64,000 bases of DNA from Malacoraja senta (taxonomy: Eukaryota): the NCBI GenBank assembly GCA_038087875.1, contig CM075991.1:12402001-12466000 (forward strand). The letters are read 5' to 3'. The notes under the pieces were generated by a model. It had not been told where the DNA came from. It ran no database searches and was given only the letters and a program-made list of their open reading frames with translations. Position numbers and translations under genes: made by a program. This document shows positions 1 through 63,190 of this stretch, one piece after another (position 1 is the stretch's first letter; every line of letters starts with the position of its first letter).

Positions 1-6684
<6,684 letters not shown>

Positions 6685-7544: not shown

Positions 7545-8510
7545 TCATTAAGATAAATGTGAGGTTATCCACTTTGGTAGCAAAAACAGGAAGGCAGATT
7601 ACTATCTAAATGGTGTCGTTGGGAAGTACAGCGGGATCTTGGGGTCCTTGTTCATCAGTCTATGAAAGTAAGCATGCAGGTACAGCAGGCAGTGAAGAAA
7701 GCAAATGGCATGTTGGCCTTTATAACAAGAGGAGTCGAGTATAGGAGCAAAGACGTCCTTCTGTAGTTGCACAGGGCCCTAGTGAGACCACACCTGGAGT
7801 ATTGTGTGCAGTTTTGGTCCCCTAATTTGAGGAAGGACATTCTTGCTATTGAGGGAGTGCAGCATAGGTTTACAAGGTTAATTCCCGGGATAGCTGGACT
7901 GTCATATGCTGAGAGAATGGAGCGGGGGTGGAAGATTGCAACCTTCATGTGGTCCGCCTTGTTGCGACTAATGCAATCAACTCGACGTGCACAAACGGAA
8001 GATCAAATAGAACAAGTTGTCCAACAACTTTAGGCTGTGCACGCCACACGAAAGAAGAAGAAGTAGAAGAAGAAGAAGAATGGAGCGGCTGGGCTTGTAC
8101 ACTCTGGAGTTTAGAAGGATGAGAGGGATCTCATTGTAACATATAAGATTGTTAAGGGTTTGGACACGCTAGAGGCAGGAAACATGTTCCCGATGTTGGG
8201 GGAGTCCAGAACCAGGGGCCACAGTTTAAGAATAAGGAGTAAGCCATTTAGAACGGAGATGAGGAAACACATTTTCTCACAGAGAGTGGTGAGTCTGTGG
8301 AATTCTCTGTCCCAGAGGGCGGTGGAGGTCGGTTCTCTGGATACTTTCAAGAGAGAGCTAGATAGGGCTCTTAAAGATAGCGGAGTCAGGGGATGTGGGG
8401 AGAAGGCAGGAACGGGGTACTGATTGGGGATGATCAGCCATGATCACATTGAATGGCAGTGCTGGTTCAAAGGGCCGAATGGCCTACTCCTGCACCTATT
8501 GTCTATTGTC
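7545..8510 (+). mobile_element. CR1-clade LINE (HER1-like), 5'-truncated 3' fragment with a nested insertion
   Basis: RT C-terminal peptides [29 protein letters not shown]; 3' end ...GAATGGCCTACTCCTGCACCTATTGTCTATTGTC. Confidence 0.92.
7926..8076 (+). mobile_element. Short retroposon 3' end with (GAA)n tail and 12-bp TSD
   Basis: AGAATGGAGCGG duplicated at 7914-7925 and 8077-8088; insert ends in GAA repeats; removing it restores the CR1 sequence. Confidence 0.8.
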
Positions 8511-9309
8511 TAAAGCTCCCCATGTCTGGTCATTATTTCCCAGAACCTGTCATTATTGAACTCTTCACGGCAGCTAAACAAAATTGTGCACCAATGTCGA
8601 CTGGTTTCTCGCCGTCCAAAAAGACATGTCAAAAGTCAGGTCAAATCAAATTTATTGTCATTTGCACAAGTATGGTGAGATACAGGTTGAATGCAAATCT
8701 TACTTGCTGCAGAATCACTGGCACGTCAGACTCAGATAATCACACAGAAACATAAATCATACATAAACTGTACGTGGTTCTGGTCGACCCATTGCAGGAA
8801 GGAGGTGGGGACTTTGGAGAGGCTGCGGAAAAAGTATAACCAGAATGATTCGGGGGGATGAGCTACGAGGAGAGGTTGGTCAAACTTGGATTGTTTTCTG
8901 TGGAACGTTGGAGTTGAGTTACATGATAGAAATATATAAAATGATGAGAGGCATAGATAGGGTAGACGGTTGGAACATGTTTCCCAGAGTGGAAATGTCA
9001 AAGACTAGAGGCATAGCTTTAAGATGACAGGGGCAAAGATCAAAGGAGATAGAACATAGAACAGTACAGCACAGGAATGGGCCCTTCAGCCCACAATGTT
9101 TATGTTAACCTGATCTAATCTAATCCATACCCCTCTATTCCCTGCATTTCATTGTGCCAATCCAAAAGCCTCTTAAACGCCATTACAAGGCAAGTTTTGT
9201 ACTTATTGTGCTGCCAGGGCTGGTGGTGCAGACAGATATAGTGGCTTCCAAAGACTTTTAGATAGGCACATGGATATACATGGAATAGAGGAATATGGTT
9301 CATAGACAA

Positions 9310-9705
9310 TATATAATAGGTGCAGGAGTAGGCCATTCGGCACTTTGAACTAGCACCGCCATTCAATGTGTTCATGGCTGATCATCCACAATCAGTACCC
9401 CGTTCCTACCTTCTCCCCATATCCCTTGACTCTGCTATCTTTAAGAGCTCTATCTAACTCTCTCTTGAAAGCATCCAGTGAATTGGCCTCCACAGCCTTC
9501 TGAGGCAGAGAATTCCACAGATTCACAACTCTCTGGGTAAAAAAGTTTTTCCTCATCTCCGTTCTGAATGGCTTACCCCTTTGGCCCCTGGTTCTGGACT
9601 CCCCCAACATCAGGAACATGTTTCTTGCCTCTAGCGTGTCCAATCCTTTAATAATCTTATATGTTTCAATAAGATTCCCTCTCATCCTTCTAAACTCCAG
9701 AGTAT
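9310..9705 (-). mobile_element. CR1/HER1 LINE 3' fragment
   Basis: ORF 9392-9718: LEFRRMRG...ESRTRG...LWNSLPQ...ELDRAL. Confidence 0.9.
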
Positions 9706-10016
9706 ACGAGCGTTCCATTCAAGCAGAGGAGATTAATTTAACTTGGCCTCATGTTGGACATGGGCATTTTGGGCTAGAGGCTTGTTACTGTGCTGTACTT
9801 TTTCTCATTACTGCTATCTCCAGTCTGTTTGACTCCAACCTGGCATCTCCCACTTCCTTTTCATTTACTTCCTGTAACCTATTTCTTTCCCCAGTTTTGG
9901 CTGTGTTCTGAACGAACATTAACCAAAAGGCTTCGTCATGACAAACATAAAGTGCTGGAGTAACTCAGCGGGTCAGGCAGCATCTGTGGTGAAAATGGAT
10001 GTAGGGTCCCGACCCA

Positions 10017-10230
10017 AAACGTCACCTATCCATGTTCTCCAGAGATGTTGCCTGACCCGCTGAGTTACTCCAGCACTCTGTGAAACGTCACCTATCCATG
10101 TTCTCCACAGATGCTGCCTGACCCGCTGAGTTACTCCAGCACTCTGTGAAACGTCACCTGTCCATGTTCTCCACAGATGTTGCCTGACCCGCTGAGTTAC
10201 TCCAGCACTCTGTGAAACATCACCTGTCCA
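10017..10230 (+). repeat. 66-bp tandem array (about 3 units) derived from the Penelope 3' terminus
   Basis: Unit GAAACGTCACCTATCCATGTTCTCCACAGATGCTGCCTGACCCGCTGAGTTACTCCAGCACTCTGT; gives the 22-aa periodic ORF. Confidence 0.9.
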
Positions 10231-10569
10231 CCCTGGGGACAAGGTTCTGACTGTCTACCCCTAACTGCTCCAGGCGATCATCAATTAAAACCAGTCTCAC
10301 TCCCGGGCAAGTCCCTAGTTAGTCGTGATTCCACTACAGCAAGGTTCACAAACTCACCACACTTTACATGTCCAACCCACAGTAGCAGTGAAACCTGAGG
10401 CTGTTTAAATGCCTTTAATCACAAATTAAAATAAAATGCAAATAAAATTACATCCTGGAAATTGTGCTCTGAAAGTCATCTTTTGATTTTTTTCCTTCAG
10501 ATAGAAGTATCATATTGTGGCATGAAACAGGAGGCAAATAGTCAGCCTTTCAAACTGAAGGAACAGAGT

Positions 10570-11285
10570 CTTAGTTTAGAGAGACAGCATGGAAACAGGC
10601 CCTTCGGCCCACCGAGTCCGCGCCGACCAGCGATGACCTGTTTACACTAGTTCTCCCTTATCCCACTTTCTCATCCACTCCCTACCCATTCAGGTCAATT
10701 TACAGAGGGCCAATTAACCTACAAACCCACACGTCTTTGAGGTGTGGGAGGAAACCGGACAAAACCCACGCAATCACAGGGAGAACGTTGGCACTCCACA
10801 CAGACAGCACCCAAGGTCAGGATGGAACCCGGGTCTCTGGCGCTGTAAGGCAGCAGCTCTACCCGCTGTGCTGCCGTGCCACCCAAAGATGTCAATTTGT
10901 GAATGGGTTTTGATGGGTTGGGGGGGGGGGGGTGAGAGACCAGAGGGCTCACAACATACAGAAGTGAATATTAAAATGAATGAACCTGCAAACAGGCCCT
11001 TCGGCCCATCGATTCCATGTGGACCATTGATCACCCGTTCACACTAGTTCTATGTCATCCCACCTTTGCAACATCCTCTCCCTACACATTAGGGACAATT
11101 TACACAAGCCAATTAACCTACAAACCCGCACGTCTTTGGGATTTGGGAGGAAACCGGAGCACCCGGAGGAAACCCGCGCGGTCACAGGTAGCACGTGCAA
11201 ACTCCAGACAGACAGCATCCAAGGTCAGGATGGAACCCGGGTCTCCGGCGCCGTGAGGCAGTGGCTCTATCCGCTGTGCCGCCCA
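10570..11285 (-). mobile_element. Two HE1-type V-SINE copies (about 10570-10880 and 10990-11285)
   Basis: Reverse complement of tRNA-derived head (GGCACAGCAGCGGGTAGAGCTGCTGCC-like, GGGTTCCATCC B box), central V-domain and GGGCCGAAGGGCCTGTTT tail. Confidence 0.85.
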
Positions 11286-11458
11286 CGGTTTGCGTCAGTG
11301 CTTGAATAATTTGCAGTTTGTTGGCTCAGTGCTTCACCAGTCTCCACTTGCACCAGCTTCCAGTCACTGACAGCTTTTAGTGAAGTCTCCGTGCCTCAAT
11401 CCTTCTTCTCCTGGAAGCCTCAAGGAGGGTGAAAGGCCGTCAGCGCCCATTAGTCCAT

Positions 11459-11464
11459 TTTATT
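11459..11464 (-). promoter_or_regulatory. Candidate KCNIP3 polyadenylation signal
   Basis: AATAAA on the - strand about 310 nt after the stop codon, in non-repeat sequence. Confidence 0.35.
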
Positions 11465-11771
11465 CCATCCCATTCCTTTAAAGTCCAGAGAATGTTGGAA
11501 TCTGTCAGATTCAGGATGTTGGACGGAATAACATTATTTCCATTGGAAAAAATATCTTCTACCCTAGAGGAGCAGTCCTTGCTTAGTCAAACCTTGTTGA
11601 GAAAAGCCACGATGCAACGGAACAATTATTCCTCTTTGTTAATTGAAGTTTTTAAAATAGTTTTGTCAAGGAAATAGCATACTTGGAGATCCTCAGGATT
11701 ACAAAGTGTGTGAGACAAGATATAGAATTCCTGCCTGCGTTGTCCCAACTCAGTAGAGGGTTCCGATGCTT

Positions 11772-11819
11772 CTAAAGAGCGTTCTCAAAGAGCTGCATAG
11801 AATGCATGATATTCTCATC
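11772..11819 (-). CDS. KCNIP3: KCNIP3 last coding exon [15 protein letters not shown]
   Basis: Acceptor ctctcctgcag, 48 nt, TAG stop. Confidence 0.95.
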   Translation of the reverse strand, partial: DENIMHSMQLFENAL

Positions 11820-14800
11820 CTGCAGGAGAGAGGAGAGGAGCAGTATTAACAGCACGGAAGCTCACCAGATCTCTGTCAGAGGGCAGTCTGTACCCGGAAC
11901 CAGCTGCCAGAGGAAGCTACAGCAGCCGATAATTCCGGCTTTTAAAAGACATTTGGACAGATACACGGCCAAGAAAGGTTGAGGTGGATATGGGCCAGAA
12001 TGACAACTTGGTCGGCATGGACAGGGTGGGCCGAAGGGCCTGATTCTGTGCTGTACAGCTCTGTGGTGAGTGGTGACAGAATGAATACAGAATTGGCAAA
12101 GGGTCAGAAAATCCAGGTGTAGGAAGGAACTGCAGATGCTGGTTTACACTGAAGATAGACACAAAATGCAGGAGTAACTCAGCAGGACAGGCAGCGTCTC
12201 TGGAGTAAAGGAATGGGCGACATTTCGGGTCAGTCTGAAGAAGGGTCTCGACCCGGAACGTCACCCATTCCTTCTCTCCAGAGAAGCTGCCTGTCCCGCT
12301 GAGTTACTCCACCATTTTTTGTCTCTCTTCAGGGTTGTTTTTCGATAGGGAGGGGGAGTGTGTGTGGGGGGTGGGGTGGGGGGGGGAGGAGTATTGGGAT
12401 TGCTTCTCTTTTCGATGTACGTTAACAAGCTGAACTTGAGTTGACGGGGGTAAGTTTTCACTCAGCACCTCCTTCCCAGGATGGAAGAATCAAATACTAG
12501 AGGCCATAGCTTTAAGGTGAGTGGGGGAAAGTTTACAGGAGATGTGCGGCCAAGTTTTCTCTAGAGGCTGGCGAGTGCATGGGACCCGCTGCCAGGGGTG
12601 TTGGTGGAGGCAGATACAATAGCAGTGTTACAAGACTTCTAGAGGGGCACATGGATATGCAGGGGATGGAGGAATATGGTTCATGTGTAGATGAATGCGA
12701 GTTGGTCTTGGCATACTGTTCAGCACAGACATTGTGGGCCGAAGGGCCAGCTCCTGTGTTGTACTGTGTTATGTTCTATGTTCTATCTTGTGTGACCTCA
12801 GATCGGCCGACTTGGGGTTGCTGAACATCCCGCGGTCTAGGCATAAGCTCAGGGGCGACCGCGCCTTTGCGGTTGCAGCTCCAAGACTGTGGAACAGCAT
12901 CCCTCTTCCCATCCCTCTGCCCCCTCCATCGACTCCTTTAAGTCGAGACTTAAAACTCATCTCTACTCCCAAGCCTTTCTTGACGTCCTCTGAGCGAGGG
13001 CTATATAGAAACATAGAAAATAGGTGCAGGAGTAGGCCATTCGGCCCTTCGAGCCTGCACCGGCGCGAATTGGTCGCTGCTGCTCTCTCCTCAAACTTGT
13101 GTTTCTTATTTTCTTTTGGTGCTTTTGAAATTGAATTCTGTCCTTGATTTGTGTACTGTGGTGTTTTTTTTATTTTTTATTTTATTTATTCCGATTATGT
13201 GTTATTTTGTTTTGTGATTCTATGCATTGTAAGGTGTCCTTGGGTTTTAGAAAGGCGCCAGTAAATAAAATGATTATTATTATTATTATTATAATATGAT
13301 CATGGCTGATCATCCAACTCAGTATCCTGTACCTGCCTTCTCTCCATACCCCCTGATCCCTTTATCCACAAGGGCCACATCTAACTCCCTCTTGAATATA
13401 GCCAATGAACTGGCCTCAACTACCAGCTGGCCTCATATATGTATGTAGTGATGTTTGTATTTAATCTATGAACCACTGTTGTTTGTTATACTATTCTTAT
13501 ACCAATGTAAAGCACTTTGGCCAATGAGAGTTGCTTTGTAAATGTGCTATAGAAATAAAAGTGACTTGACTTGACTTGACCTGACCTCCCGCTGCCAAGG
13601 GAGTTGCTGGATTTAGGGAGGAAGGTGTTTGGGCCTTGTGAGACTGCAGAGGCCGTCTACTGTCCCCAAGAGCTGGAGGAGGAATGTGTTCCTCACCGTT
13701 TGACAGGTCTCCAGGAACTCATCAATTGTCACCACACCATCACGGTTTCTGTCCATCTTCTGAGGAATTAAACACAGATGAGTCTGCTGAGTTACCGTCC
13801 GACATACAAGACCAACACTCCCGAGCCTAACCCAGACCATCACGCAAACCAACCTCCTTTCCATCGACTCCATCTACACCTCACGCTGCCTCGGCAAGGC
13901 CACCAGCATCATCAAGGACCAGTCTCACCCTGGTCACTCCCTGTCCCACCAGGCAAGAGGTACAGAAGTGTGAAAACGCACACCTCCAGATCCAGATTCA
14001 GAGGTAGACAAAAATGCTGGAGAAACTCAGCGGGTGAGGCAGCATCTATGGAGCGAAGGAAATAGGTGACGTTTCGGGTCGAGTTCACTTATTCCTTCAC
14101 TCCACAGGTGCTGCCTCACCCGCTGAGTTTCTCCAGCATTTTTGTCCACCTTCGATTTTTCCAACATCTGCAGTTCTTTCTTAAACACCTCCAGATTCAG
14201 GGACAGTTTCTTCCCAACTGTTATCAGGCAACTGAACTGTCCTCTCACCAACTGGAGAGCGGTCCTGACCTACCATCTACCTCATTGGAGACCCTTGGAC
14301 GATCTTTAATCGGACTTTATCTTGCACTGAGTGTTATTCCCTTTATCCTGTATCTGTGCAGTGTGGATGGTTTGATTCTAATCATGTGTAGTCTTTCCAC
14401 AGACTCGATAGTGAGCAACATAAAAGCTTTTCTTAGTATCTCAACACAAGAGACAATAAACTAATCTAAACTAACACCCTAAGCATGCAACAAGAAAGCT
14501 TTTTGCTGTACCTCAGTCCACGAAACAATAAACGGTACTGGCTCGAAGGGCCGAATGGCCTCCTCCTGCACCTATTTTCTATGTTAATGAAGTAAATTAA
14601 ACTAACGCCCCTCTGTGATTGGAATTCTTCCCGGATTTCCATCATCCTCTCCCATTCCCCATTCCAATGTCCACCTCTGCATTGTTCCATTCCCATCAGC
14701 CCTTTCACCATTAATCGCCACTGACCCTCCGCTTGTCATCGTCCCTCCGCCTCCTTCCACAAACGCCGCCTCATTTCACGTCTCCCCTTTCCGATGAAGA

Positions 14801-17800
14801 GGCAGTGGGGGTTGTTAATGCAGCTTCTGCCACCACAGATGTTGCCCGACCTGCATGGCTCTGCAGGTCCATCCCCCCCCCCCCCCCCCCGAGATACATT
14901 GACCCACTGATTGCTCCCAGCATCTCCAACCTCTTATCCCAGACTAGATGCCATTCAGCTCCAGCTCTCCATCATACCTGGAAGAACCTCTCCACATGTT
15001 CAAGGGGGCTCTCTTGGTGCAGGGCTGGGTACGTGTAACGCCCCATCATGTCATAGATCGACTGAATAATTGCCAACATTTCCTGCAAGTAGAAGAGGAG
15101 GAACGGTGACACCAGGGCCAGACCGCGCCAACTTCATCACATCTGCTCGCTGAATCAGGCCAAGTACTTCATAAACTAAACCCTTCCCCTCCCACACCTC
15201 ACCCCTCACCCTTCCTTATCTCTGTGTCTCCCTCTCCACCCCACTCTCAGTCTGAAGAAGGGTCTCAGCCCAAAACTCAGCGGGACAGGCAGCATCTCTG
15301 GAGAGAAGGAATGGGTGACGTTTCGGGTCGAGACGGAAGAAGGGTCTCGTCCCGTAATGTCACTCATTCCTTCTCCAGAGATGCTGCCTTGTCCTGCTGA
15401 GTTACTCCAGCATTTTATGTCTATCCTAAGTGACAGGTGGATACAGGCAAGGGGATTTTTGATTGGCAAATGGCTGTAAAAAGGCCAGAGGTGAAAGGAC
15501 ATAAAGTGGGAGATAAGAAGATGTGAGGTCAAACCAGAGGAAGGAGTATAGATGGAAGATGATGGTGGTGGGGGGAGGGGGGGGGTGCAAAGTACTTATG
15601 ATACAGAGGCATTATATATAGCAGGTAGACAAAAATGCTGGAGAAACTCAGGGGGTGAGGCAGCATCTATGGAGCGAAGGAAATAGGCAACGTTTCTGGT
15701 CGAGACCCTTCTTCAGACCCGACCCGTCTCGTCCCGAAACGTCGCCTATTTCCTTCGCTCCATAGATGCTGCCTCACCCGCTGAGTTCCTCCAGCATTTT
15801 TGTCTACCTTCGGTTTTTCCAGCATCTACAGTTCCTTCTTAAACATATATCATTGCAAGTACTTTAATTTGTATACATACGGAGACCATTGTGATAAGTA
15901 CTGCAGGCTCCGAATCGTAAGTTGAGACTAAAACACATCATCTCTGGCACAAGGTGGTGGTGGGGTGGAAAACCTGACATGGATTAGGGATCAGGTCATC
16001 ATCAGCAAAACTAGACAGGGATCAAATCAGCAATACTATTTGATCTACGGGGGTGGGGGGGGGGGGGAAGCTAACGACTCCATTATTCCATTATTGGGCA
16101 GAAGCACAGGTGAGGCACCAATGTAGCCTGTGAGAGGAATAGAAGGGTTGGCACTGTCTTATACCCAGAGTGGTGGAATCAAGAACCAGAGGACATAGGT
16201 TTAAGGTGAGAGGAGAAAGATTTAATAGGAACCCGAGTCAACAATTTTTTGCGCAAAGGGGTTGGGTGTATGGAACGACCTGCTGGAGGAGGTAGTTGCG
16301 GCCGGTGCCATCACAACTTTTAACAAGCATTGGATCGTGTAGGTTTGGAGGGATATGGGCCAAACACCGGCAGGCAGGTGGGACAGGTGTAGATGGGACG
16401 TATTGGTCATTGTGGGCAGGTTGGGCCACTGGGCCCGTTTCTGTGCTATATAACTCTAGCTTCAACAAGGCTGCTGCTAGGGTTATAAATGCACTTAAGA
16501 TAGACACAAAATGCTGGAGCATCTTAGCGGGTCAGGCAGCATCTGTGGAGAAAAGGAATGGGTGACGTTTTGGGTTGAGACCCTTCTTCAGACTGAGGTC
16601 TGATGCAATTTACTAGGTCTGACACTTCCAATGAGCATTTGTCCAAGTTTTTTGCTCTTCAGTGACATTAGAGATATTCCATTAAATACATCAGACATTC
16701 TGAAGTAGGGTCCCAACCAGAGACATTGCCTGTCCATTCCCTCTCCAGATGCTGCCTGGCGCGCCGAGTTCCTCCAGCGCTCAGTGTCTCAGCCACAGTC
16801 GGTGCGTGCAGGACAGCAGGCGGTGTTGGCCCTACCTCCTTGGTCACGTAGCCATCCTTGTTGATGTCGTACAGGTTAAAGGCCCAGATGAGCTTCTCGT
16901 TCACGGTTCCCCGCAGTAACACAGACAGACCGATAACAAAATCCTGAGAGGTGGGAGAGTTGAGGAGGTGAAGGGGAAAGTGAATGATCTGTAATAAACT
17001 GCACCAAAAAAAACAAAAATCCAGCAGCGACTGCGCGGTGACGCCTGTTTGGTCGTGAGTAGTCGCCCAAAGAGTCGTACCTTTTTCTGGTCACCGCTGG
17101 ATTTTCAACATTTTGAACATTTTCGGCCACCTGCTGCGACTATGACGGGTCCTTTATGGAGGGCATACCTTTACGGTGAGAGGGGCAACGTTTAAAGGAG
17201 ATGTGCGGGGCAAGATTTCTTACACAGAGGGTGGTGGGTGCCTGGAACACACTATCTGGGTGATGGTGTTTAGTTTAATGTCATTTATACTGAGGTACAG
17301 TGAAGAGCTTTCTGGTGGCAGATACAAGGTAGAGGTGGAGTAAGAGGCTTTTAGATAGGCACATGAATACGCAGGGAATGGATGGATATGGATCACGTGC
17401 AGGCAGTGGAGATCAGCTCAATTTGGCATCATGTTCGGCACGGACATGGCGGGCCGAAGGGACTGTTCTATGTTCTATGACTGGGAAGTGTTCTAAGTTG
17501 ACTCGAGGTCAGGTAAGCTTCTTTAGAAATGTGTTTTTGTACTGATCCCAACCTTCAGATGCATTAGTCTTTCTCAAATTATGTTTCACCTCAAATCGAA
17601 TGGCTCCACTGTTGTCCGTGTCGAACGCGTTAAACAGGAAGTGTGCGTACGTTGTAACATCTGCAACGAGAAAAGGAACGATTTCAGGATAATCCTGACC
17701 ATTAACAAGAACGATCCCAGGAATGAGTGGGTTAACAAATGATGAACGTTTGTCGGCACTGGGCCTGTACTCGCTGGAGTTTAGAAGGATGAGGGGGGAC

Positions 17801-20800: not shown

Positions 20801-23800
20801 AGATCCCTTCTCGAGGCCAGCTTTCATGAATGATATTTTTAACCTCTTTACCATGAGAATTATAGTCCATAAAAATCTTTACACAAATATTTAATTGTTT
20901 CAAGTAATGCTGAATCATCAGAATTGCATGCAGATAATGCAGATAATTCTCCAATGGTTTTGGGGCTGAGTTCTGCTAACGCTGACTCACTTGGCAATGC
21001 AGGAGTAGGGATAGACTTAAATGTTGGGATAATCCCTGCCTCAACTGCCTCCTCTGGCAGCTGTTCCATAGTCCCTGCCTCAACTGCCTCCTCTGGCAGC
21101 TTGTTCCATAGTCCCTGCCTCAACTACCTCCTCTGGCAGCTTGTTCCATAGTCCCTGCCTCAACTACCTCCTCTGGCAGCTTGTTCCATAGTCCCTGCCT
21201 CAACTACCTCCTCTGGCAGCTTGTTCCATAGTCACTGCCTCAACTGCCTCCTCTGGCAGCTTGTTCCATAGTCCCTGCCTCAACTATCTCCTCTGGCAGC
21301 TTGTTCCATAGTCCCTGCCTCAACTACCTCCTCTGGCAGCTTGTTCCATAGTCCCTGCCTCAACTACCTCCTCTGGCAGCTTGTTCCATAGTCCCTGCCT
21401 CAACTACCTCCTCTGGCAGCTTGTTCCATAGTCCCTGCCTCAACTACCTCCTCTGGCAGCTTGTTCCATAGTCCCTGCCTCAACTGCCTCCTCTGGCAGC
21501 TTGTTCCATAGTCCCTGCCTCAACTATCTCCTCTGGCAGCTTGTTCCATAGTCCCTGCCTCAACTACCTCCTCTGGCAGCTTGTTCCATAGTCCCTGCCT
21601 CAACTATCTCCTCTGGCAGCTTGTTCCATAGTCCCTGCCTCAACTACCTCCTCTGGCAGCTTGTTCCATAGTCCCTGCCTCAACTACCTCCTCTGGCAGC
21701 TTGTTCCATAGTCCCTGCCTCAACTACCTCCTCTGGCAGCTTGTTCCATAGTCCCTGCCTCAACTACCTCCTCTGGCAGCTTGTTCCATAGTCCCTGCCT
21801 CAACTACCTCCTCTGGCAGCTTGTTCCATAGTCCCTGCCTCAACTACCTCCTCTGGCAGCTTGTTCCATAGTCCCTGCCTCAACTATCTCCTCTGGCAGC
21901 TTGTTCCATAGTCCCTGCCTCAACTACCTCCTCTGGCAGCTTGTTCCATAGTCCCTGCCTCAACTACCTCCTCTGGCAGCTTGTTCCATAGTCCCTGCCT
22001 CAACTACCTCCTCTGGCAGCTTGTTCCATAGTCCCTGCCTCAACTACCTCCTCTGGCAGCTTGTTTCGTAGTCCCTGCCTCAACTACCTCCTCTGGCAGC
22101 TTGTTCCATTAACATCACTGGATGTTTTCAAGAGAGAGTTAGATTTAGCTCTTAGGGCTAACGGAATCAAGGGATATGGGGATAAAGCAAGAATGAGGTA
22201 CTGATTCTGGATGATCAGCAATGATCATATTGGTTGGCATGGGCAGGGTGGGCCAATTTCATGCTGTATCACTCTATGACTAAGGGTTTCAACCCGAAGT
22301 GTCGTCGGTCCATTCCCTCCGCAGATGCTGCCTGACCCGCTGAGTTACTCCAGCACTCTGTGAAACGTCACCTATCCATGTTCTCCACAGATGCTGCCTG
22401 ACCCGCTGAGTTTCTCCAGCACTCTGTGAAATGTCACCTATCCATGTTCTCCACAGATGCTGCCTGACCCGCTGAGTTACTCCAGCACTCTGTGAAACGT
22501 CACCTATCCACTTCTCCACAGATGCTGCCTGACCCGCTGAGTTACTCCAGCACTCTGTCATATTTTAAATTCCGGCATCATATTGCTAGGTGATCTTTAC
22601 AGCATTTTTCTGCATTCTAAGATAATTGATATTGTTGTACATATGGTGTGTATGTGAGAGAGGAATAGATATGACTTACATAATCAAGGCTAAGTGAAAT
22701 CTTCAATGGAAATGGATTAGATAATAGGAGATGATTGAACCAAAAGACAAAGCCTAGCTCAGTATTCCTTTTAAAGTGATTGATTCAGGCACTTTAATAT
22801 TCCCATTTTAACTTGCAACATCTATATTTATAATGGAAACTGTGTGTGTGTGTGTGAGATCCACACTCTAATACAACCTCCTGCCTGTGATGTTACTGCA
22901 GAGGTTTCACTAAGGGGCATCACATGGTTGGCCGTGGGAATTCCCTTTGGAAGTCAGCTAATTGGAAGCAAGACGCAATGGCAGCGGTGAAGTCACTCCG
23001 AGACTCACGGTGCAGGGAGATTTAGACGCCATGAGATTGAGAAAGGTCTGGGCAGTCTGACAAACCCCAGACAGGCTTTGCAAGTGGATGTAGAAACGTG
23101 TAGGAAGGAACTGCAGGTGCTGGTTTAAACCGAAGATAGACACAGAGTGCTGGAGTAACTCAGCGGGTCAGGCAGCATCTGTGGAGAGAAGGAATGGGTG
23201 ACGTTTTGGTTGAGAGACCCGTCTTCAGACTAACATTTCGGGGCAAGACACTTCTCCAGTCTGAAGAAGGGTCTCGACCTGTAAACGTCACCTATTCCTT
23301 TTCTCCAGAGATGCTGTCTGACCCACTGAGTTGCTCCAGCATTTTGTGTCTATCTTAGAAATAAGGAACTGCAAATGCTAGATAATACAGAAAAGTGCAG
23401 GAATAACTCAACAGGTCAGGCAGCATGTGTCAGAAGGAACTGCAGATGCTGGTTTACTCCGAAGATAGACACAACATGCTGGAGTAACTCAGCGGGTCAG
23501 GCAGCAACTCTGAAGAGAAGGTTGTTCCGGGTCGAGACCCTTCATCAGACTTCAGACACTGAGTTACTCCAGCACTCTGTGAAACGTCACCTATCCATGT
23601 TCTCCACAGATGCTGCCTGACCCGCTGAGTTACTCCAGCACTGTGTGAAACGTCACCTATCCACGTTCTCCACAGATGCTGCCTGACCCGCTGAGTTACT
23701 CCAGCACTCTGTGAAACGTCACCTATCCATGTTCCGGCAGCATCTATGGAGCGAAGGAAATAGGCAACGTTTCGGCCCCGAAACCCTTCGGGTTTCGGCC

Positions 23801-26800
23801 CGAAACGTTGCCTATTTCCTTCAGGGTTTCGGCCCGAAAGGTTGCCCATTTCCTTCGCTCCACAGATGCTGCCTGACCCGCTGAGTTACTCCAGCACTCT
23901 GTGAAACGTCACCTATCCATGTTCTCCACAGATGCTGCCTGACCCGCTGAGTTACTCCAGCACTGTGTGAAACGTCACCTATCCATGTTCTCCACAGATG
24001 CTGCCTGACCCGCTGAGTTACTCCAGCACTCTGTGAAACGTCACCTATCCATGTTCTCCACAGATGCTGCCTGACCCGCTGAGTTACTCCAGCACTCTGT
24101 GAAACGTCACCTATCCATGTTCTCCACAGATGCTGCCTGACCCGCTGAGTTCCTCCAGCACTCTGTGTTTTTTGCTTCATATAAACACTGATTTACATGT
24201 ATGTTGAAGGAAGAAACACTTCACACACGAGGACATTGGAGCAGGTTGTCCACACAGAGAGTGCGGTCACATTGTACGCACGTTTTTGAAGCCCCTGTAC
24301 AGAGACTGGATTTCTCTCTTGGAGAACATGGTCCGAGCTTGGAGACCATCCAGGCCTTCGGGCTGGTGGCGGGCCGCTGACAACTCGTCATCGATGTCGC
24401 AGTCATCTGCAGGGAAACACGAGAGGTGACTTGGTGCCCCACCCCTGCCCACAGCAGTCCCCTCCTGCCAGCCCAGATGTGGTGTGGCACGGTGGCACAG
24501 CGCCAGAGACCCAGCTTCCATCCTGACCTTGCTTGTGCGCTGACTGTATGAAGTTTGCACGTTCGCCCCGTGACCGCGTGGGTTTTCTCTGGAGGCATCG
24601 GTTTCCTGCCACTCTCCAAAGACGCGCAGGTTTGAGGGTTAATTGGCCAGTAAATTGTAAATTGTCACGAGCGTGTGTAGGGTGGTGTAATAGCCCTGTC
24701 CCACGGTACCAGTTCATTCCAAGACCTCTCCCAAGTTTTAAAAAAATCAGACTCGTGGTAAGCACGGAGAATGAACGTAGCGGGTACGTCGGAGCTCGGG
24801 GACGTCTCTTAGCGGCTCGTAAAGCTAACGGCAGGTACTCGGGAAGACTCGCTAATGGCAGGTAAGCTCGGGAAGACTCGTGAAGATTTTTCAACATGTT
24901 GAAAAATGTCCACGAGAGCCCCGAGTACCGACGAGTGGCCATTACCGTGAATCTCCGAGTTCGAGTCAGGGCAAACTCGGGGAGAGCTCTTGGAATGAAC
25001 TCGTACCGTGGGACAGGGGTTTTAGTGTGCGGGGATCGGCGGTCGGCGCGGACTCACACACTAACCTATCACTTCTCAACATCAGAATCTACTCGCAAGT
25101 TTGCACCAACTCGCTGCTATAACGATATCTTCCTGTAATTTACTCGTACTCTTTGTTCCAGTTCCGTACTTTAGGGGGCGGCACGGTGGCGCAGCTGCTT
25201 CACAGCCCCAGAGACCTGGGTTCGATCCTGACCACGGTTGCTGTCTGTGTGGAGTTTGTACGTTCTCCCTGTGACCGGGTGCGTTTTCTTCGGGTGCTCT
25301 GTTTCCCACCCACATCCCTATAACGTGTGGGGGTTTGTAGGTTAATTGGCTTCTGTACATTGTCCCTAGTGTGTGTAGGATAGAACTAGTGTACGGGGTG
25401 ATTGTTGGTGGGCCGAAGGGCTTGGCTAGAAGTCAGCCCTGAAGGTCCGGTTGCTGGTGGTAGAGCAGTGGGAATTGATTGTGTGAGTGAGGCCGAGAGT
25501 TGGCTCAGTTGGACTGCCAGCATCCTGTTACTGTCATCTGGGACTGATGTACTCCAGGATCAGGTTGCCAGCCTCTGGGCTGAGAATCGTTAACAAAGCA
25601 CATCACACCGAATGGGAAATGGAGATGTTAAAAAAACCCGACTCAATGTTATTGTCCGGAACAACAGCAGAAACCGGAGGCCACTCTGCCCCTCCAGCCC
25701 GCCCTGCTATCCACAAAGGTAGAAACAAAATGCTGGCGTAACTCCGCGGGACAGGCAGCATCTCTGGGGAAAAGGAATGGGGTCAAGACCCTTCCTCAGA
25801 CAGAAGAATGTCCTTCTCTCCAGAGATCCCGCTGAGTTACTCCAGCATTTTGTGTCTATCTTCAGTGTAAACCTGCATCTGCAGTTCCTTCCTACACATT
25901 TTGCCTGCTGATGGAGCTGATCTTACACCTCAGCTCCATGTTCCAGAATCACCTCCACCATCCTCGAACCCCTGCCCTCTCCGCTCTACCTATTGGACGT
26001 GAGATTGACGTGATTGTATTCATGCACGTTATTTATCTGATCTGTTTGGGATAATATGCGAGACAAAGGAACACGAGGAACTGCAGGTGCTGGTTTACAC
26101 CAAAGGACACAAAGTGCTGGAGTAACTCAGCGGGACAGGCAGCATCTCTGGAGAAGTGGAATGGGTGACGTTTCGGGTCGAGACCCTTCTTCAGACCCTT
26201 CAAACTAGGCATGCAAAACAAAGCTTGGTACAAATGACAATACTATGCCTAAAGCCAAACCATCTATGACATCTTCACGCTGGGACAAAAAGGTTTGCAT
26301 CTGAGCTTGCTCCATCCTTCCACAAAGGAAATTAAACTCTTGCAAAGTTGTCTCTCAAATCTCCATTCAACCCAACACCCATTTATTGCAAAGCTGAGTG
26401 AAAACTGCAGGAGCGATGAGCTAACTAAGGGTGGCAGGGTGGCGCAGCGGTAGAGTTGCTGCCTTACATCGCATGCAGCGCCGGAGACCCGGGTTCCATC
26501 CCCACTACGGGTGCTGTCTGTACGGAGTTTGCACGTTCTCCCCGTGACCTGCGTGGGTTTTCTCTGAGATCATCGGGTTCCTCCCACACCCCAAAGACGT
26601 GCAGGTTTGTAGGTTAATTGGCTTGGGATAAGTGTAAATTGTCCCTAATGTGTGTAGGGTAGTGTCGGTGTGTGGGGATCGCTGGTCGGTGCAGACTCGG
26701 TGGGACAAAGAGCCTGTTTCTGCGCTGTATCTGTATCTGTATCTGTAACTGAGGTTGCTTCATTGATGTTACACAATGGGGTGCAGGAAAGCACTTATCC

Positions 26801-29800
26801 CCGCAGCTGAGGATACTTCCCCAAGACGCATCAACCTGCAAGGCTGCTGCCAGCCGGTGCATTCCTCTCTTCCCTGTGTTCTGCATCACTGCTGTGCTGT
26901 GTTGCTGGTAATCTGACCCCCGACTTGGCTCGACCTTGTCACATCAGGACTGGCTGCCCGTCCTGTGGTGAGGCCGGGACTCTGTGCTGTCGTCAGCAGA
27001 CCGCTACTTCATTAGTGTTAGTTTAGAGATACAGCGGGGAAACAGGCCCTTCGGCCCACCAAGCCCGCACCGACCAGCGATCCCCGCACATTAACACTAC
27101 CCTACACACACGAGGGACAATTTACACTTATACCAAGCCAATCAGCCTACAAACCTGCACGTCTTTGGGGTGTGGGAGGAAACCGAAGATCTTGGAGAAA
27201 ACCCACGCGGGTCACGGGGAGAACGTGCAAACTCCGTACAGACAGCGCCCGTAGTCGGTATCGAACCCGGGTCTCCGGCGCTGCAAGCGCTGTAAGGCAG
27301 CAACTCTACCGCTGCGCCACCAGGCCGGGTGTCAGGGATTATGGGGAGAAGGCAGGAGAATGGGGTTAGGAGCGAGAGATAGATCAGCCACGATTGAATG
27401 GCGGAGTAGACTTTTGATGGGCCAAATGGCCTACTTCTGTTCCTTATGAACTTATGAGACATGGAGACAGGACTCTTTAGCCAGAGGGTGGTGAATCTGG
27501 AATTCATTGCCACAGACAGCTGGAGGCCAAGTCAATGGATATTTTTAAGGTGGAGATTAACAGATTCTTGTTCAGTGCGGGTGTCAGAGGTTATGGGGAG
27601 AAGGCAGGAGAATGGGGTTGAGAGGGAGAGATAGATCAGCCATGATTAAATGATGGAGTAGACTCAATGGGAATCTTTAACTCCTTTTCCTAATACTCTC
27701 TAGCCTCAACTACCCATCTGCTCACTGCTCTCATTACTCGTGTATACGTGTACAGTACACTTGGACACACATATCCTTCTACATATCAGGGTTCCACTAG
27801 CTCTCAACGCTTAGATAACCTCGCTGGGATTTGTATGTTTGACCTGGTCCTGAATCTGGCTTTCACCCTGGGCCCATTACAGCTCAGTCCAGGACAGCAC
27901 ACATACAGCAGGAGAGACTTTAGTTTAGTTTATCATCGTGTACCGAGGTTTCAGTCAAAAGCTTTTAGTTGCGAGCTATTCAGTCAGCGGGAAGACAATA
28001 CAGGATTACAATCGAGCTGTCCACAGTGCACAGATACAGGATAAAGGGAATCACGTTTAGGATAAGATAAAGTTCGGTAAAGGGAGACACAAATATGAAT
28101 GTCTTTTTTGGCGAAAAAAAATAGTCCCAATATTCCTTCCACCAAGGAGAAACAAGGAACAACAGATAGGTGACGTTTCACAGAGTGCTGGAGTAACTCA
28201 GCGGGACAGGCAGCATCTATGGAGAGAAGGAATGGGTGACCTTTCAAGAAGGAAAGGGGGACTGCCCTTCAGGGTCTCGACCCGAAACGTCATCTCCAGA
28301 GAAAGTGGACAGGTGACATTTCGGGTTGGGACCCTTCTTCAGACTCATTCAAAATTAGATTAATCACCTCATCCACATTCTCCACAGATGCTGCCTGACC
28401 CACTGAGTTACTCCAGCACTCTGTGAAACATCACCTATCTGCTGTTCCTTGTTTCTCCTTGGTGGAAGGAATATTGGGACTATTTTTTTTCGCCAAAAAA
28501 GACATTCATATTTTGCCACATGCTGTTCTCTGCCCCATGCACTTGGCCTACCTATAGCCCTTCACAGTGTCTCCTGATGTTCATCAGTATCAGAAGTTGA
28601 TTTGTAGACACAAAATGCTGGAGTAACTCAGCGGGTCAGGCAGCATCTCTGGAGAGAAGGAATAGGTGACGTTTCTTTCTTCAGACTCGACCCGAAACTG
28701 CGGTTGAAAAGGCGGAGCTGAGCTTCCAGCAGTCCCCAGAGGAGAGGGCTGTGCACAATATGAAATTCTTAAGGGATTGGACAGGCTGGATGCAGGCAAA
28801 ATGTTCCCCAAGTTGGAGGAGTCCAGAACTAGCAGTCACACAGTTTAAGAATAAGGGGTCGGCCATTTAGGACTGAGATGAGGAAAAACTTTTTCTCCCA
28901 GAGAGTTGTGAATCTGTGGAATTCTCTGCCACAAAAGGCAATGGAGGCCAATTCACTGGATGTTTTCAAGAGAGAGTTGGATAGAGCTCTCAGGGCTAAT
29001 GGAATCAAGGGATATGGGGAGAAAGGAGGTCTGGACTCAAAATGTTACCCATTCCTTCTCTCCAGAGATGCTGCCTGTCCCGCTGAGTTACTCCAGCATG
29101 TTGCATCTATCTTTGGTTTAAACCAGCATCTGCAGTTCTTTCCTACACATAAATTCATACAGTAAGTCACAGGAGCAGAATGAGGCCATTCGGACCATCA
29201 CGTGGACTCGGTGGGCTGAAGGGCCTGTTTCCATGCTCTATCTCTAAACTACACTAAATGGAGACAACGTTTGGGAGGCAGGGCCCTTCTTTAAGAGACA
29301 TTTACACAAGGAAGAGAAGGGTCATCCCCCCCACAGATGCTGCCTGACCCGCTGAGTCCCTCCAGTAATTTGGATTTTTCTCAAGGTTCCAGGATCTGGG
29401 AGTCTCTGCTGCCATAACTTCATAACTTCTAGGAGCAGAATTAGGCCATTCGGCCCATCGATTCTACTCAGCCATTCAATCATGGCTGATCTATCTTTCC
29501 CTCTCAACCCCATTCTCCTGCCTTCACCCCATAACCTCTGACACCCGTTCCTTTCCTTGCTTCAGTGATGGAAGGTTTAGGAGTACAACCGTCGACTGAT
29601 TCTCCGTGCCCATGGTGTGGATCTTGCTGGATGGACAGCAGGCGAAATGTGTAGGAAGGAACCGCAGATGCTGGAGTGGCTCAGCAGGATCTCAGGAGAG
29701 AAGGAATGGGCGACATTCTTCTGTCTGAGGAAGGGTGTTGACCCCATTCCTTCTCTCCAGAGATGCTGCCTGTCCCGCTGAGTTACTCCAGCTTTTTGTG

Positions 29801-38477: not shown

Positions 38478-38951
38478 CACTTTAATTCTCCTTCCCATTC
38501 AGACCTTTCTGTCCTCGGTCTCCTCCATTGTCAGAGTGAGGCTAAACGCAAATTGGAGGAACAGCATCTCATATTTCGCTTGAGCAGCTTACAGCCCAGT
38601 GGTATGAATATCGATCTCTCTCACTTCAGGTAGCCCCGGCATTCCCTCTCTCTCTATCCCTCCCCCACCCAAGTTGCACCAGCTTCTCATTCTCACCCAA
38701 CAAACAGCTTACAATGGCCAGTTTCCTTTCTCATCGTGACTTTTTTGCATATCTTTCATTCATTGTTCTTTATCTCTCCACATCACCGTCTAGATCTCTC
38801 GTTTCCCTTATCCCTAACCAGTCTGAAGAAGGGTCTCGACACGAAACGTCACCCATTCCTTCTCTCCAGAGATGCAGCCTGTCCCGCTGAGTTACTCCAG
38901 CATTTTGTGTCTATCTTCGGTTTAAACCAGCATCTGCAGTTGCTTCTTACA
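38478..38951 (+). mobile_element. Penelope-like element 3' end: GIY-YIG C-terminus + 3'UTR with hammerhead-like motif
   Basis: 38478-38633 translates HFNSPSHSDLSVLGLLHCQSEAKRKLEEQHLIFRLSSLQPSGMNIDLSHFR* (PLE endonuclease E...I..L....P.G.N pattern); CTGAAGA...GAAACGTC at 38823-38850. Confidence 0.85.
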
Positions 38952-46366: not shown

Positions 46367-46913
46367 TTCACCTATCCACGTTCCCCACAGATGCTGCCTG
46401 ACCCGCTGAGTTACTCCAGCACTCTGTGAAACGTCACCTATCCATGTTCTCCACAGATGCTGCCTGACCCGCTGAGTTACTCCAGCACTCTGTGAAACGT
46501 CACCTATCCATGTTCTCCACAGATGCTGCCTGACCCGCTGAGTTACTCCAGCGTTATTCTGTGAAACGTCACCTATCCATGTTCCGGCAGCATCTATGGA
46601 GCGAAGGAAATAGGCAACGTTTCGGCCCGAAACCCTTCCGGGTTTCGGCCCGAAACGTTGCCTATTTCCTTCTGGGTTTCGGCCCGAAACGTTGCCTATT
46701 TCCTTCAGGGTTTCGGCCCGAAAGGTTGCCCATTTCCTTCGCTCCACAGATGCTGCCTGACCCGCTGAGTTACTCCAGCACTCTGTGTGAAACGTCACCT
46801 ATCCATGTTCTCCACAGATGCTGCCTGACCCGCTGAGTTACTCCAGCACTCTGTGTGAAACGTCACCTATCCATGTTCTCCACAGATGCTGCCTGACCCG
46901 CTGAGTTACTCCA
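46367..46913 (+). mobile_element. Composite 66-bp array/fold-back core element, copy 2
   Basis: Same junctions as 23559-24168, with one extra internal core unit. Confidence 0.8.
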
Positions 46914-48919: not shown

Positions 48920-49192
48920 TCATATTCCGCTTGGGCAGTCTACATCCTGGTGGCCTGAACATTGAATTCTCCCAATTCTGCTAGCCCTGGCTGTCCCCTC
49001 CCCTTCATCAGCCCTCTGGCTGTCTCCTCCCCTCCCCCAGCCCTCGGGCTCCTCCTCCGCCTTTTCCTTTTTTCCTTTCTTCTCCCCACCCCCTATCAGT
49101 CTGAAGAAGGGTTTCGGCCCGAAACGTTACCTATTTCCTTCGCTCCATAGATGCTGCTGCACCCGCTGAGTTTCTCCAGCATTTTTGTGTAC
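48920..49192 (+). mobile_element. Penelope-like element 3' end, second subfamily
   Basis: IIFRLGSLHPGGLNIEFSQFC*; CTGAAGAAGGGTTTCGGCCCGAAACGTT at 49101-49128. Confidence 0.8.
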
Positions 49193-55559: not shown

Positions 55560-56118
55560 TGCTGGAGTAACTCAGCGGGTCAGGCAGCATCTGTGGAGAA
55601 CATGGATAGGTGACGTTTCACACAGTGCTGGAGTAACTCAGCGGGACAGGCAGCATCTGTGGAGAACATGGATAGGTGACGTTTCACAGAGTGCTGGAGT
55701 AACTCAGTGGGTCAGGCAGCATCTGTGGAGCAAAGGAAATGGGCAACCTTTCGGGCCAAAACCCTGAAGGAAATAGGCAACGTTTCGGGCCGAAACCCGG
55801 AAGGGTTTCAGGCCGAAACGTTGGCTATTTCCTTCGCTCCATAGATGCTGCCGGAACATGGATAGGTGACGTTTCACAGAGTGCTGGAGTAACTCAGCGG
55901 GTGAGGCAGCATCTGTGTAGAACATGGATAGGTGACGTTTCGGGTCGAGACCCTCCTTCAGACTGATGTCAGGGGAGTGGGCAGGACAGAGATAGCATGT
56001 AGTCGGAGACGGTCAGACTGGTGGGAGAACTGGGACGGTGGAGGGGATGGAGAGAGGGAGAAAGCAAGGGCTATCTGAAGTTAGAGAAGTCAATGTTCAT
56101 ACCGCTGGGGTGCAGGCT
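55560..56118 (-). mobile_element. Penelope 3' end (SLHPSGMNIDFSNFR*) running directly into the composite 66-bp array element (copy 3)
   Basis: Reverse complement of 56070-56118 encodes the GIY-YIG terminus; then UTR, ribozyme-like motif, 66-bp units and core. Confidence 0.8.
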
Positions 56119-56708
56119 GGTAATGGTAAGAATCTTTTAGCAATGGTCGGGTATGATGGGCAAGAGGGCATCGGTTTAACAGGAGAGGCAGGAGGTAGAG
56201 AGAGAGGAATATTGATTAAGGGGAGTGAGCTGCTCTCGTGTTATTTAAGAAGCAATTTGACAAGCATTTGAATCACCGAGGCAAAGCAATTGGACAAATG
56301 CCGATAGATGGGCACAATGGGTTGGCATGGACTTGGCGGGCCGAAGGGCCTGTTTCTGTGCTTGTAAGTCGCAGGCCAGCATTGGGGCGCATGTACCTAC
56401 ACGTGTGTGTACCCTGGGCTTGGAGAGGCTGCATGTGCCAACACATGTCATAGTGGGATACAGGACACAGGAGCAGCCATCCCACTGGAGTGGTTGGACA
56501 ATGGAGTGAGTATAATCAAAGCACAATCACTGGCGACCCTCCGGCAGGGGGAGCAGCACATGGTGGGTGGCAGGGCCAGCCATGAGTCAGTGTGGGGCAG
56601 CAGTCACACCACTGGATCTGTCAATGGACAAAGGAGAGAGAGAATGAAGTGAGTCACAGTCGGATAGCATGGAAATAAGCCCAGTGAGTCTGCACCCCAG
56701 CACAAAGC

Positions 56709-58725: not shown

Positions 58726-59349
58726 CCGACCAGCGATCCCCGCGACTAACACCACCCTACACACACTAGGGACAATTTACACTTATACCAATTAACCTAC
58801 AAACCTGTACGTCTTTGGGGTGTGGGAGAAACCGAAGATCTCGGAGAAAACCCACGGGGAGAACGTGCAAACTCCGTACAGACAGCACCCGTAGTGGGGA
58901 TCGAACCCGGGTCTCTGGCGCTGCAAGCGCTGTAAGGCAGCAACTCTCCCGCTGCTCCAACGTGGCCGCCATCTTCCCCAACTCCTTCTCCCTCGACTCT
59001 TCTGGGATCGGTTCAAAGTTTGTGAAACTCCGTCCCAACAAGTTGCTGAAGTTATGGAAGAATTCGCAGCCAGAGGGACACAGGACGAAGCAAACAGAAG
59101 GAGAGGTCAGGCCCTGGTCACAGATGGATGATAAGATTATTCCAGACAGGGGAATGTGGAGACACAGCAGAATGGGAGATGAATTTAAGCCAATTCATCT
59201 GTAAAACACGCAGAGAATTGGAAGGTAGGACAAAAAAATGCTGGAGAAACTCAGCGGGTGAGGCAGCATCTACGGAGAAAAGGAGTAGGCGATGTTTTGG
59301 GTCGAGACCCTTCTTCAGTCTTCTCAACCCAAAATATTGCCTACTCCTA

Positions 59350-63190
<3,841 letters not shown>

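Follow-up and report, generated by a model that had tools for sequence, protein, structure and literature searches.

Four loci in the window (the whole analysed stretch of 64,000 nucleotides) carry copies of one non-coding composite repeat, in which arrays of a 66-bp unit are joined to a fold-back core that has a single origin and was subsequently copied. Judging by its sequence, this composite consists solely of pseudo-LTR (pLTR) pieces of Neptune-like Penelope elements, the label Neptune-like being based on the CxxxxCxxC linker of one homologue, P0021. Our preferred reading, to which we give roughly an even chance, is that of a young non-autonomous Penelope derivative that was mobilised in trans and attached to resident pLTRs through homology. 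The initial annotation had described a chimeric, non-coding element of single origin copied beyond one locus, and our analysis supports that description. The plain 66-bp arrays that it mentioned were also located. The features are as follows.

10017..10230, plus strand: 3.2 units in a plain array; ahead of it, in register, lie a remnant of hammerhead stem II and an inverted arm resembling the unit (9945-10000).
22317..22558, plus strand: 3.7 units in a plain array; ahead of it, in register, lies a decayed pLTR start (22284-22325) with 74-78% identity to relatives.
23405..23550, minus strand: older inverted pLTR with tail, adjoining the 5' end of copy 1; 83-86% identity to its best relatives within the window.
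23559..24167, plus strand: copy 1, with a partial unit, 2 units, a 21-nt stub, core, hybrid unit and 4 units; its last unit extends to the unit end and leads into a T-rich tail resembling the parental subfamily.
23735..23857, plus strand: core of copy 1, with an inverted piece of the second pLTR subfamily, the tip-deleted fold-back centre, one 34-bp duplication and the start of the hybrid unit with the diagnostic letters.
28170..28430: two head-to-head pLTRs, each ended by a unit-unit junction (28187 on the minus strand, 28417 on the plus strand); the body of the minus copy belongs to the ordinary subfamily and has 96% identity to ordinary copies.
46367..46913, plus strand: copy 2, with 3 units, stub, core, hybrid unit, 1 unit and a cut unit.
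46585-46741: core of copy 2, with two 34-bp units.
55560..55940, minus strand: copy 3, with 1 unit, stub, core, hybrid unit, 1 unit and a cut unit.
55731-55853, minus strand: core of copy 3.
55934..55961, minus strand: minimal hammerhead ahead of copy 3.
55962..56121, minus strand: Penelope-like remnant, with the last GIY-YIG codons (stop at 56071-56073) and the pre-hammerhead spacer.
59232..59349: older head-to-head pLTR pair, the direct arm of which runs in register into copy 4; the inverted arm has 89.5% identity to its best relative.
59350..59657, plus strand: copy 4, with a cut unit, 1 unit, stub, core and hybrid unit; it ends 39 nt ahead of a DOCK-family exon.
59486-59608, plus strand: core of copy 4, with the GTTA variant on either side, 259 nt apart.

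The T-rich end of the parental subfamily is deduced from an exonised unit in P0036/P0037. The core of copy 2 has two 34-bp units, which corrects an earlier count of one.

The initial observation holds: a single junction, a single fold-back centre and two diagnostic letters recur at all four loci, the flanks of which are unrelated. The 23-nt unit/core junction gives four exact matches in the window (23727, 46577 and 59478 on the plus strand, 55861 on the minus strand) and none in 100 shuffles, even with 2 mismatches allowed; GAAAGGTTGCCCATTT is found 4 times in the window. Across the 16 whole units, 14 of 1056 positions deviate from the majority. The sole difference of the cores of copies 2 and 4 is a common GTTA insertion, that of copy 1 has two 1-nt indels (scored by the aligner as 5 mismatches), and that of copy 3, the most diverged of the four copies, has private substitutions at 5 of 190 positions. 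In favour of the preferred reading, all four copies have the identical fold-back centre, whereas each of the 14 ordinary head-to-head pairs has a centre of its own. As these ordinary Penelope fold-backs of the window differ in their centres, the core arose once and was then copied.

The unit corresponds to one pLTR subfamily, from the hammerhead GAAAC through the end of the pLTR hairpin, and it ends at the point where most ordinary pLTR insertions stop. A second subfamily supplied the core, a head-to-head pair that gained a 34-bp duplication, lost its tip and thereby both hammerhead boxes, and was fused into a unit array once. Unit and core come from separate subfamilies, as had been proposed. 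The pLTR subfamilies present number more than two, and the core is followed by a hybrid unit. The unit hairpin reaches -15.6 kcal/mol, compared with a mean of -9.3 in 48 ordinary copies, only 2 of which fold as stably, and this favours the preferred reading. Copy 4 folds strongly (z -11 and -12), but this is due to its inverted repeat and gives no evidence of function.

The composite has no RT or endonuclease coding capacity, and its sequence recurs at the 3' end of autonomous PLEs. We rejected a coding role because the open antisense frames are the repeat read backwards; three short peptides matched no Pfam family. In two protein searches with antisense frames, 1 matched protein had the unit junction and 2 had single units; no matched protein contained the core. 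Exact-pattern scans of metagenome and viral contigs gave no matches. No published description of the composite was found in the literature within reach, which excludes Repbase, Dfam, most subscription papers and the preprint supplementary tables; the latter cover one chondrichthyan and may bear on novelty.

From contig depth in the run matching the window, the core is present in very roughly 140 to 16,000 copies. The high copy number suggested initially was overstated: the density of the window would correspond to 62,500 copies per Gb, whereas the upper bound is ~16,000 in total. With a genome of 2 Gb or more, which we assume here, the window is enriched for the core at least ~8-fold over this upper bound. 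Very roughly, the core is more than a local duplication and far below the density of the window. In organism A, 61% of contig depth remains at each of the two diagnostic positions, in line with the preferred reading, against 10-16% in the related organisms B and C, where the core is much rarer. A contig from organism C reads across the centre of the fold-back (73 nt, 6 differences), and the unit junction is present in a CCSAP isoform of Rhinoraja longicauda. Query-word shares of 0.60-0.63 in organisms D, E and F (p 0.03-0.07, overlapping words) are weak evidence because 47% of the query words can match without any core-specific letter; six RNA data sets with shares of 0.13-0.23 were left out of all results.

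We then come to the ends of the copies. The 500-nt flanks of the four copies have only other repeats in common, as the preferred reading would predict. With pLTR remnants making up 12% of usable sequence, 5 of 6 arrays begin at another such remnant (p 0.00014, a value that is partly circular if the plain arrays grew in place), as do 3 of the 4 core copies (p 0.006). Copy 2 alone has no pLTR remnant at either end, as expected of a fresh insertion. The unit end point is reached by 45 of 48 ordinary pLTRs, which favours the preferred reading. Against it, only 3 of 6 arrays stop at this ordinary 3' end (Fisher p 0.014), a tail is seen in none of the 6 arrays versus 19 of 48 ordinary copies, and the ends of the four copies show no target-site duplication; some PLE insertions likewise have none (accessible text of PMC3846280). 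No empty site was seen, the flank contigs of organisms B and C not bridging copy 3. A 542-nt contig of organism C was rejected as an empty site, as it aligns to neither flank. Movement as a discrete unit via RNA, as proposed in the initial annotation, is not borne out: target-site duplications are missing, the 3' ends are ragged, no empty site was seen, and most 5' ends are at older pLTRs, a position that DNA-level conversion would yield as well.

Copy 3 is indeed attached to a GIY-YIG 3' end: the sequence upstream aligns with two other GIY-YIG C-terminal remnants in the window, and relatives of one such remnant have GIY-YIG and RT domains. This linkage to a GIY-YIG ORF end concerns 1 of 4 copies, and the composite is more than just the 3' end of the adjoining Penelope copy, in agreement with the earlier view. 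The junction between PLE remnant and flank ahead of copy 3 is also found in organisms B and C, where the flank has 4 and 18 differences in ~200 and the core is rare; as an age contrast this is no more than suggestive (Poisson p 0.03 with the whole array, 0.15 with only the core). Private differences number 10/177 in the remnant versus 7/315 in the composite (p 0.069), and the remnant looks older than the composite.

Membership of the retrozymes, of which the initial annotation was reminded, is not supported. Neither the hammerhead box CTGAnGA nor the U3-A8 box variant occurs in any of the 6 arrays on either strand, and with no hammerhead box in any unit or core the composite is not a retrozyme. 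The only hammerhead adjoining an array is the single one ahead of copy 3, the catalytic core box of which is altered; this change, at position 55955, is private, the usual letter being found in 96% of contig depth. The units keep GAAACGT[C/T], 2 to 8 per array. At gathering score, Rfam gave no match on the window, and on copy 3 it gave sub-threshold hairpin matches only; these negatives are no test because Rfam also missed six hammerheads of the window with an intact box. In one oligo-dT run of organism C, no dedicated RNA was found, and 96% of the examined reads continue into unlike sequence. In this run the lack of strand bias over the core, the lack of an RNA end pile-up and the diagnostic letters near background all go against the preferred reading. 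The library is blind to small circles and comes from another organism than that of the window.

Under the preferred reading, transcripts of one or more source arrays would be reverse-transcribed and inserted by a PLE protein acting in trans, each unit presenting a hairpin next to the likely start of reverse transcription. The number of units would be set by the start point, 5' truncation and later unequal exchange. Since the cDNA would be all pLTR and the PLE endonuclease is able to cut its own pLTR, copies would join resident pLTRs in register, and neither ribozyme nor RNA circle would be necessary. Supporting this idea, pLTRs are enough for trans mobilisation and microhomology annealing has been described for the PLE 5' junction (accessible text of PMC3846280). 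A purified PLE protein starts inside the stem-loop without requiring a cleaved hammerhead; it also uses RNA shortened to 6 nt ahead of the scissile site, and it cleaves its own pLTR junction (PMC11167929). On the other hand, sequence beyond the start sites was required in vitro, and these data concern a Poseidon element, not a Neptune-like one (PMC11167929). Unit variants also occupy different array positions at different loci, and this shuffling points to recombination rather than to the preferred reading. A stronger version would see a ribozyme-less Penelope hyperparasite homing into resident pLTRs and overwriting them with arrays. We consider the homing part alone rather unlikely, and its combination with half-hammerhead units trans-cut by the intact pLTR ribozyme into small circles copied by rolling circle very unlikely.

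Spread could also have occurred at the DNA level, a pLTR-derived minisatellite being pasted into pLTRs by ectopic conversion or template-switch break repair without any RNA. We regard this, the leading alternative, as possible, though on balance somewhat unlikely. It would account for 5' ends in register, ragged 3' ends, absent target-site duplications, variants shuffled across loci and positions, and the enrichment of the core in the window relative to the genome. The window is full of other minisatellites, one of which matches a dispersed-repeat fragment, and the skate predicted protein P0035 can be read as a unit junction between an ordinary pLTR start and an ordinary end with tail, which places a unit within an older pLTR (the nucleotide detail is inferred from the translation). 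The apparently greater age of the PLE remnant ahead of copy 3 (p 0.069) goes in the same direction. However, copy 2 lacks pLTR homology at both ends, three arrays end exactly at the usual PLE 3' end with a few letters of parental tail at most, and at least ~140 young core copies would be many for conversion alone.

Copy 3, which lies in register after a GIY-YIG end and a hammerhead and is the most diverged, raises the question of whether an autonomous PLE subfamily has the composite as its expanded 3' end, the other copies being ordinary 5'-truncated insertions; 5' truncation is the rule in PLEs (accessible text of PMC8557442). This is improbable, given that copies 1, 2 and 4 have more units ahead of the core than copy 3 and no hammerhead there, and that the remnant flank junction is also present in B and C, where the core is rare, the contrast being only suggestive. 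In a retrozyme-like circle by complementation, an intact pLTR hammerhead, of which the window has six, would cut arrays whose unit retains the palindromic GAAACGUC half of the minimal hammerhead and the scissile site, and monomers of 66 nt or 259 nt would circularise before rolling-circle reverse transcription. The retained GAAACGT[C/T], the proposal that minimal hammerheads act as dimers via the palindrome (PMC4209133) and copy 4, terminally redundant for the GTTA variant at a 259-nt period around the core, would fit. We nevertheless hold this to be very unlikely indeed: the catalytic box is absent from every array, copies 1-3 are not circular permutations of one monomer, helix I has only 2 base pairs by inspection, and there is no RNA end pile-up, though an oligo-dT library of another organism misses small circles. 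Least probable of all is a purely local duplication confining the core to this chromosomal neighbourhood; the enrichment of the window (at least ~8-fold over the upper bound, assuming at least 2 Gb) speaks for it, and the lower bound of ~140 copies, the organism C contig across the fold-back centre, the unit junction of the Rhinoraja longicauda CCSAP isoform and the unduplicated flanks speak against it.

If the preferred reading of a trans-mobilised Penelope derivative is true, a 66-nt pLTR piece without hammerhead core would suffice for a vertebrate PLE parasite, in agreement with the minimal in vitro template, and a fold-back usually made anew at insertion could become fixed and be mobilised again. 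A young family of this kind, with copies in the hundreds to thousands and starts in register at older pLTRs, would allow a genome-only test of the origin of PLE tandems, separating self-targeting from DNA conversion as their source. The composite does not imply a new ribozyme or host function.

On the preferred reading, the composite would be a variant form of the known non-autonomous Penelope derivatives. Putatively non-autonomous head-to-tail PLEs are known in a clade mostly without hammerheads, namely MRC1 of Chlamydomonas (Craig et al. 2021, accessible text of PMC8557442). As described there, MRC1 is likewise non-coding, akin to an autonomous PLE 3' end and multi-copy head-to-tail, with a unit devoid of hammerhead; like it, the composite forms a dispersed multi-copy family of single origin, its count being a rough bound. 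The composite differs from MRC1 as given in that text by a unit of only 66 bp, the fusion of two pLTR subfamilies, an inherited fixed fold-back, starts that mostly lie at resident pLTRs, and an RNA mobility that is putative here. With animal non-LTR retrozymes (Cervera and de la Pena 2020, PMC7229834; Li, Clavereau and Pollet 2026, bioRxiv 10.64898/2026.07.22.740005; accessible text of both) it shares tandem, non-coding, pLTR-related units in a PLE-bearing genome (PMC7229834) and a unit length within the reported 51-972 bp. Their defining type I hammerhead (accessible text of PMC7229834), to be complete in at least 2 consecutive units, is missing from every composite unit, and circular or monomer RNA was not seen in the organism C oligo-dT run.

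The core, as a head-to-head pLTR pair, and the end point of the unit recall ordinary PLE insertions that carry an inverted 5' pLTR and a tail (Arkhipova et al. 2013, accessible text of PMC3846280; Frangieh et al. 2024, PMC11167929). In contrast to ordinary fold-backs, with their 14 centres in 14 pairs, that of the composite is frozen inside an array and re-copied. Local tandem growth and shuffling of unit variants recall the TE-derived minisatellites discussed for PLE ends (Li et al. 2026). Unlike these, the composite has a unique 123-nt core in common at distant loci, and sequence was thus transferred, not only expanded in place.

The composite is real. The 23-nt junction between 66-bp unit and fold-back core, which the initial annotation had placed at four loci, occurs four times without a mismatch and never in 100 shuffles. 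The diagnostic 16-mer of the core likewise occurs four times in the window, and two plain 66-bp arrays were recovered, at 10017 and 22317. The six arrays are as follows.

10017-10230, plain array of 66-bp units
22317-22558, plain array of 66-bp units
23559..24167, + strand, composite copy 1
46367..46913, + strand, composite copy 2
55560..55940, - strand, composite copy 3
59350..59657, + strand, composite copy 4

Units also adjoin each other at two further junctions, 28187 and 28417. Across the 16 whole units, 14 of 1056 positions depart from the majority; the cores hardly differ, save for copy 3 with its five private changes in 190. Segmental duplication was ruled out, since the flanks of the four copies have only other repeats in common. 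No target-site duplication was found at any of the four copies.

The parent of these pseudo-LTRs (pLTRs) is a Penelope-like element (PLE), and 48 of the 75 pLTR anchor matches in the window lie outside arrays. A remnant at 38478-38630 matches proteins bearing both RT and GIY-YIG domains, and in one of these proteins the linker motif typical of Neptune and Nematis is present; the named proteins nearest to a local endonuclease remnant are from skates. The sequence ahead of copy 3 aligns with the 38478-38630 remnant, confirming that this copy is attached to a GIY-YIG end. The ordinary pLTRs, those outside arrays, consist of a minimal hammerhead (CTGAnGA box, stem II, GAAAC, cut site), then a hairpin and, in some copies, a tail; six retain an intact box. 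The 66-bp unit extends from GAAAC through the hairpin end, an end point found in 45 of the 48 ordinary copies, and thus contains neither box nor stem II. Its hairpin (-15.6 kcal/mol versus an ordinary mean of -9.3) is equalled in stability by 2/48 ordinary copies. A second pLTR subfamily supplied the core, a head-to-head pair from which the tip, both boxes included, has been deleted; one or two 34-bp duplications come next, then a hybrid unit. Unit and core therefore derive from two different PLE subfamilies, as had been proposed. Inverted 5' copies are frequent in PLE insertions (PMC3846280, PMC8557442). The 14 ordinary head-to-head pairs in the window have 14 distinct centres of 12 lengths, whereas the four cores have one common fold-back centre, so the core arose one time and was then copied.

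The window is crowded with pLTR remnants, among them 48 ordinary anchors as well as 14 head-to-head pairs; judged by eye, they belong to at least four subfamilies. At 28085-28515, head-to-head pLTRs each end in a unit-unit junction and have about 75 nt of flank in common, in inverted orientation, and the joint in their middle, CCCTTCAGGG, resembles the 34-bp junction of the core. Organism C, a relative (run X8, window 55767-55798), shows separate tandem duplications of the 34-bp region whose joint has different letters, and thus this duplication may arise repeatedly.

Five of the six arrays, all but copy 2, start at another pLTR remnant. The start is in register in four of them, and copy 1 abuts an inverted pLTR copy. 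At copy 2 no pLTR was found on either side. With such remnants making up 12% of usable sequence, p is 0.006 for three of four core copies starting at one. Those at copies 1, 4 and 22284 match their best relatives at 74-90% and predate the units, whereas the unit-like remnant at 10017 may be as young as they are. In organisms B (another relative) and C, the PLE remnant ahead of copy 3 borders the same flank. Its private differences (10/177 versus 7/315 in the composite, p 0.069) are only suggestive of its predating the composite. Unit variants recur at differing positions across loci, the ordinary 3' end is reached by only 3/6 arrays (p 0.014), and the ordinary pLTR tail is found in 0/6.

The likeliest reading, to which we give an even chance, is that source arrays would be transcribed and a PLE protein would copy the transcripts in trans. 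It is reported that pLTRs suffice in cis and that 5' ends can join via microhomology (PMC3846280). A purified Poseidon protein (PMC11167929) starts within a stem-loop, dispenses with hammerhead cleavage, cuts its own pLTR junction and takes RNA beginning 6 nt before the cut site, as against 7-8 nt for the unit; it also required sequence past the start sites, and such sequence is missing from every array of the window. Given the ragged array ends, the missing target-site duplications and the shuffled unit variants, conversion between pLTRs at the DNA level stays a serious, if less likely, rival. That the composite is the long 3' end of an autonomous PLE subfamily would suit copy 3 but leaves the additional upstream units of copies 1, 2 and 4 unexplained, and we hold it for improbable. 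Circles formed from units cut by intact hammerheads are an explanation to which we give very little credence: apart from the palindrome retained in the units and copy 4's 259-nt redundancy, little speaks for it. In oligo-dT RNA of C, which is not the window's organism, core strands showed no bias (235 versus 245) and no pile-up of read ends.

A 371-nt query on copy 4, sampled as 40 words, was matched at 0.60-0.80 by 14 runs from six organism labels and seven studies. Because 47% of its words are free of core-specific letters, only organisms A (0.80) and B (0.70) stand clearly above that level. Four of 23 listed runs were aligned to copy 3. In run X1 of A, one contig (depth 33.3) matches the left flank of copy 3 without a difference; A is thus probably the species of the window and possibly the source of it, so that X1 does not support the locus itself independently. 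At two positions diagnostic of the core, contig depth without the ordinary letter was 61%/61% in A, 16%/15% in B and 11%/10% in C, and reads without it numbered 14/165 and 125/2337 in RNA of C; chance changes are among these remainders, which for B and C are therefore upper limits. Contig depth over single-copy depth, each position being counted 1 to 31 times, gave 140 to 16,000 core copies in A, an order of magnitude only, as summed contig depth is not copy number and some differences go uncounted. The estimate is above four but falls far below the 62,500 per Gb implied by the window, so that the high copy number suggested initially is overstated. Nor is the core restricted to this locus: besides the estimate for A, one contig of C (73 nt, 6 differences) crosses the fold-back centre. 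The family thus looks expanded in A's lineage and enriched in the window region, and is probably present in relatives at lower number.

Predicted skate isoforms of CCSAP and AMD1 contain exonised units (proteins P0035, P0036, P0037). The CCSAP isoform predicted for Rhinoraja longicauda has a translated unit-unit junction at its end. In two skates the AMD1 isoforms carry one parental-type unit each, at an identical position in two genera. Protein searches found no core. Read in antisense, unit and core have an open frame at 59118-59636 (-) and 23821-24192 (-). The window contains one KChIP-family and one DOCK-family exon; the former lies on the opposite strand about 110 nt from copy 1 (24167-24285), and copy 4 ends 39 nt ahead of the acceptor of the latter (59657-59697). 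The window starts with a 6.7-kb CA tract. A 40-bp minisatellite of 27 copies (21029-22109) matches part of a dispersed repeat adjoining copy 2, and more long minisatellites occur at 47655 and 56714.

In ordinary pLTRs, e.g. at 49101, 51437 and 53601, the box usually follows CAG|T behind a pyrimidine-rich stretch, and helix I has just 2 bp. This recalls the Drosophila virilis element, in which an intron end maps at helix I (PMC4209133), and by this likeness splicing may complete the ribozyme.

Membership in retrozymes (Li et al. 2026, bioRxiv 10.64898/2026.07.22.740005) needs hammerheads in at least two units; the retrozyme-like nature first suggested was therefore abandoned, CTGAnGA occurring on neither strand in any of the six arrays. 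No account of the family, which the initial annotation had not recognised either, was found in the literature searched. In the way it works the composite resembles non-autonomous PLE derivatives such as MRC1 (PMC8557442). New here are a fold-back inherited and not rebuilt, the chimera of two pLTR subfamilies, a very short and ribozyme-less unit, and in-register placement at older pLTRs.
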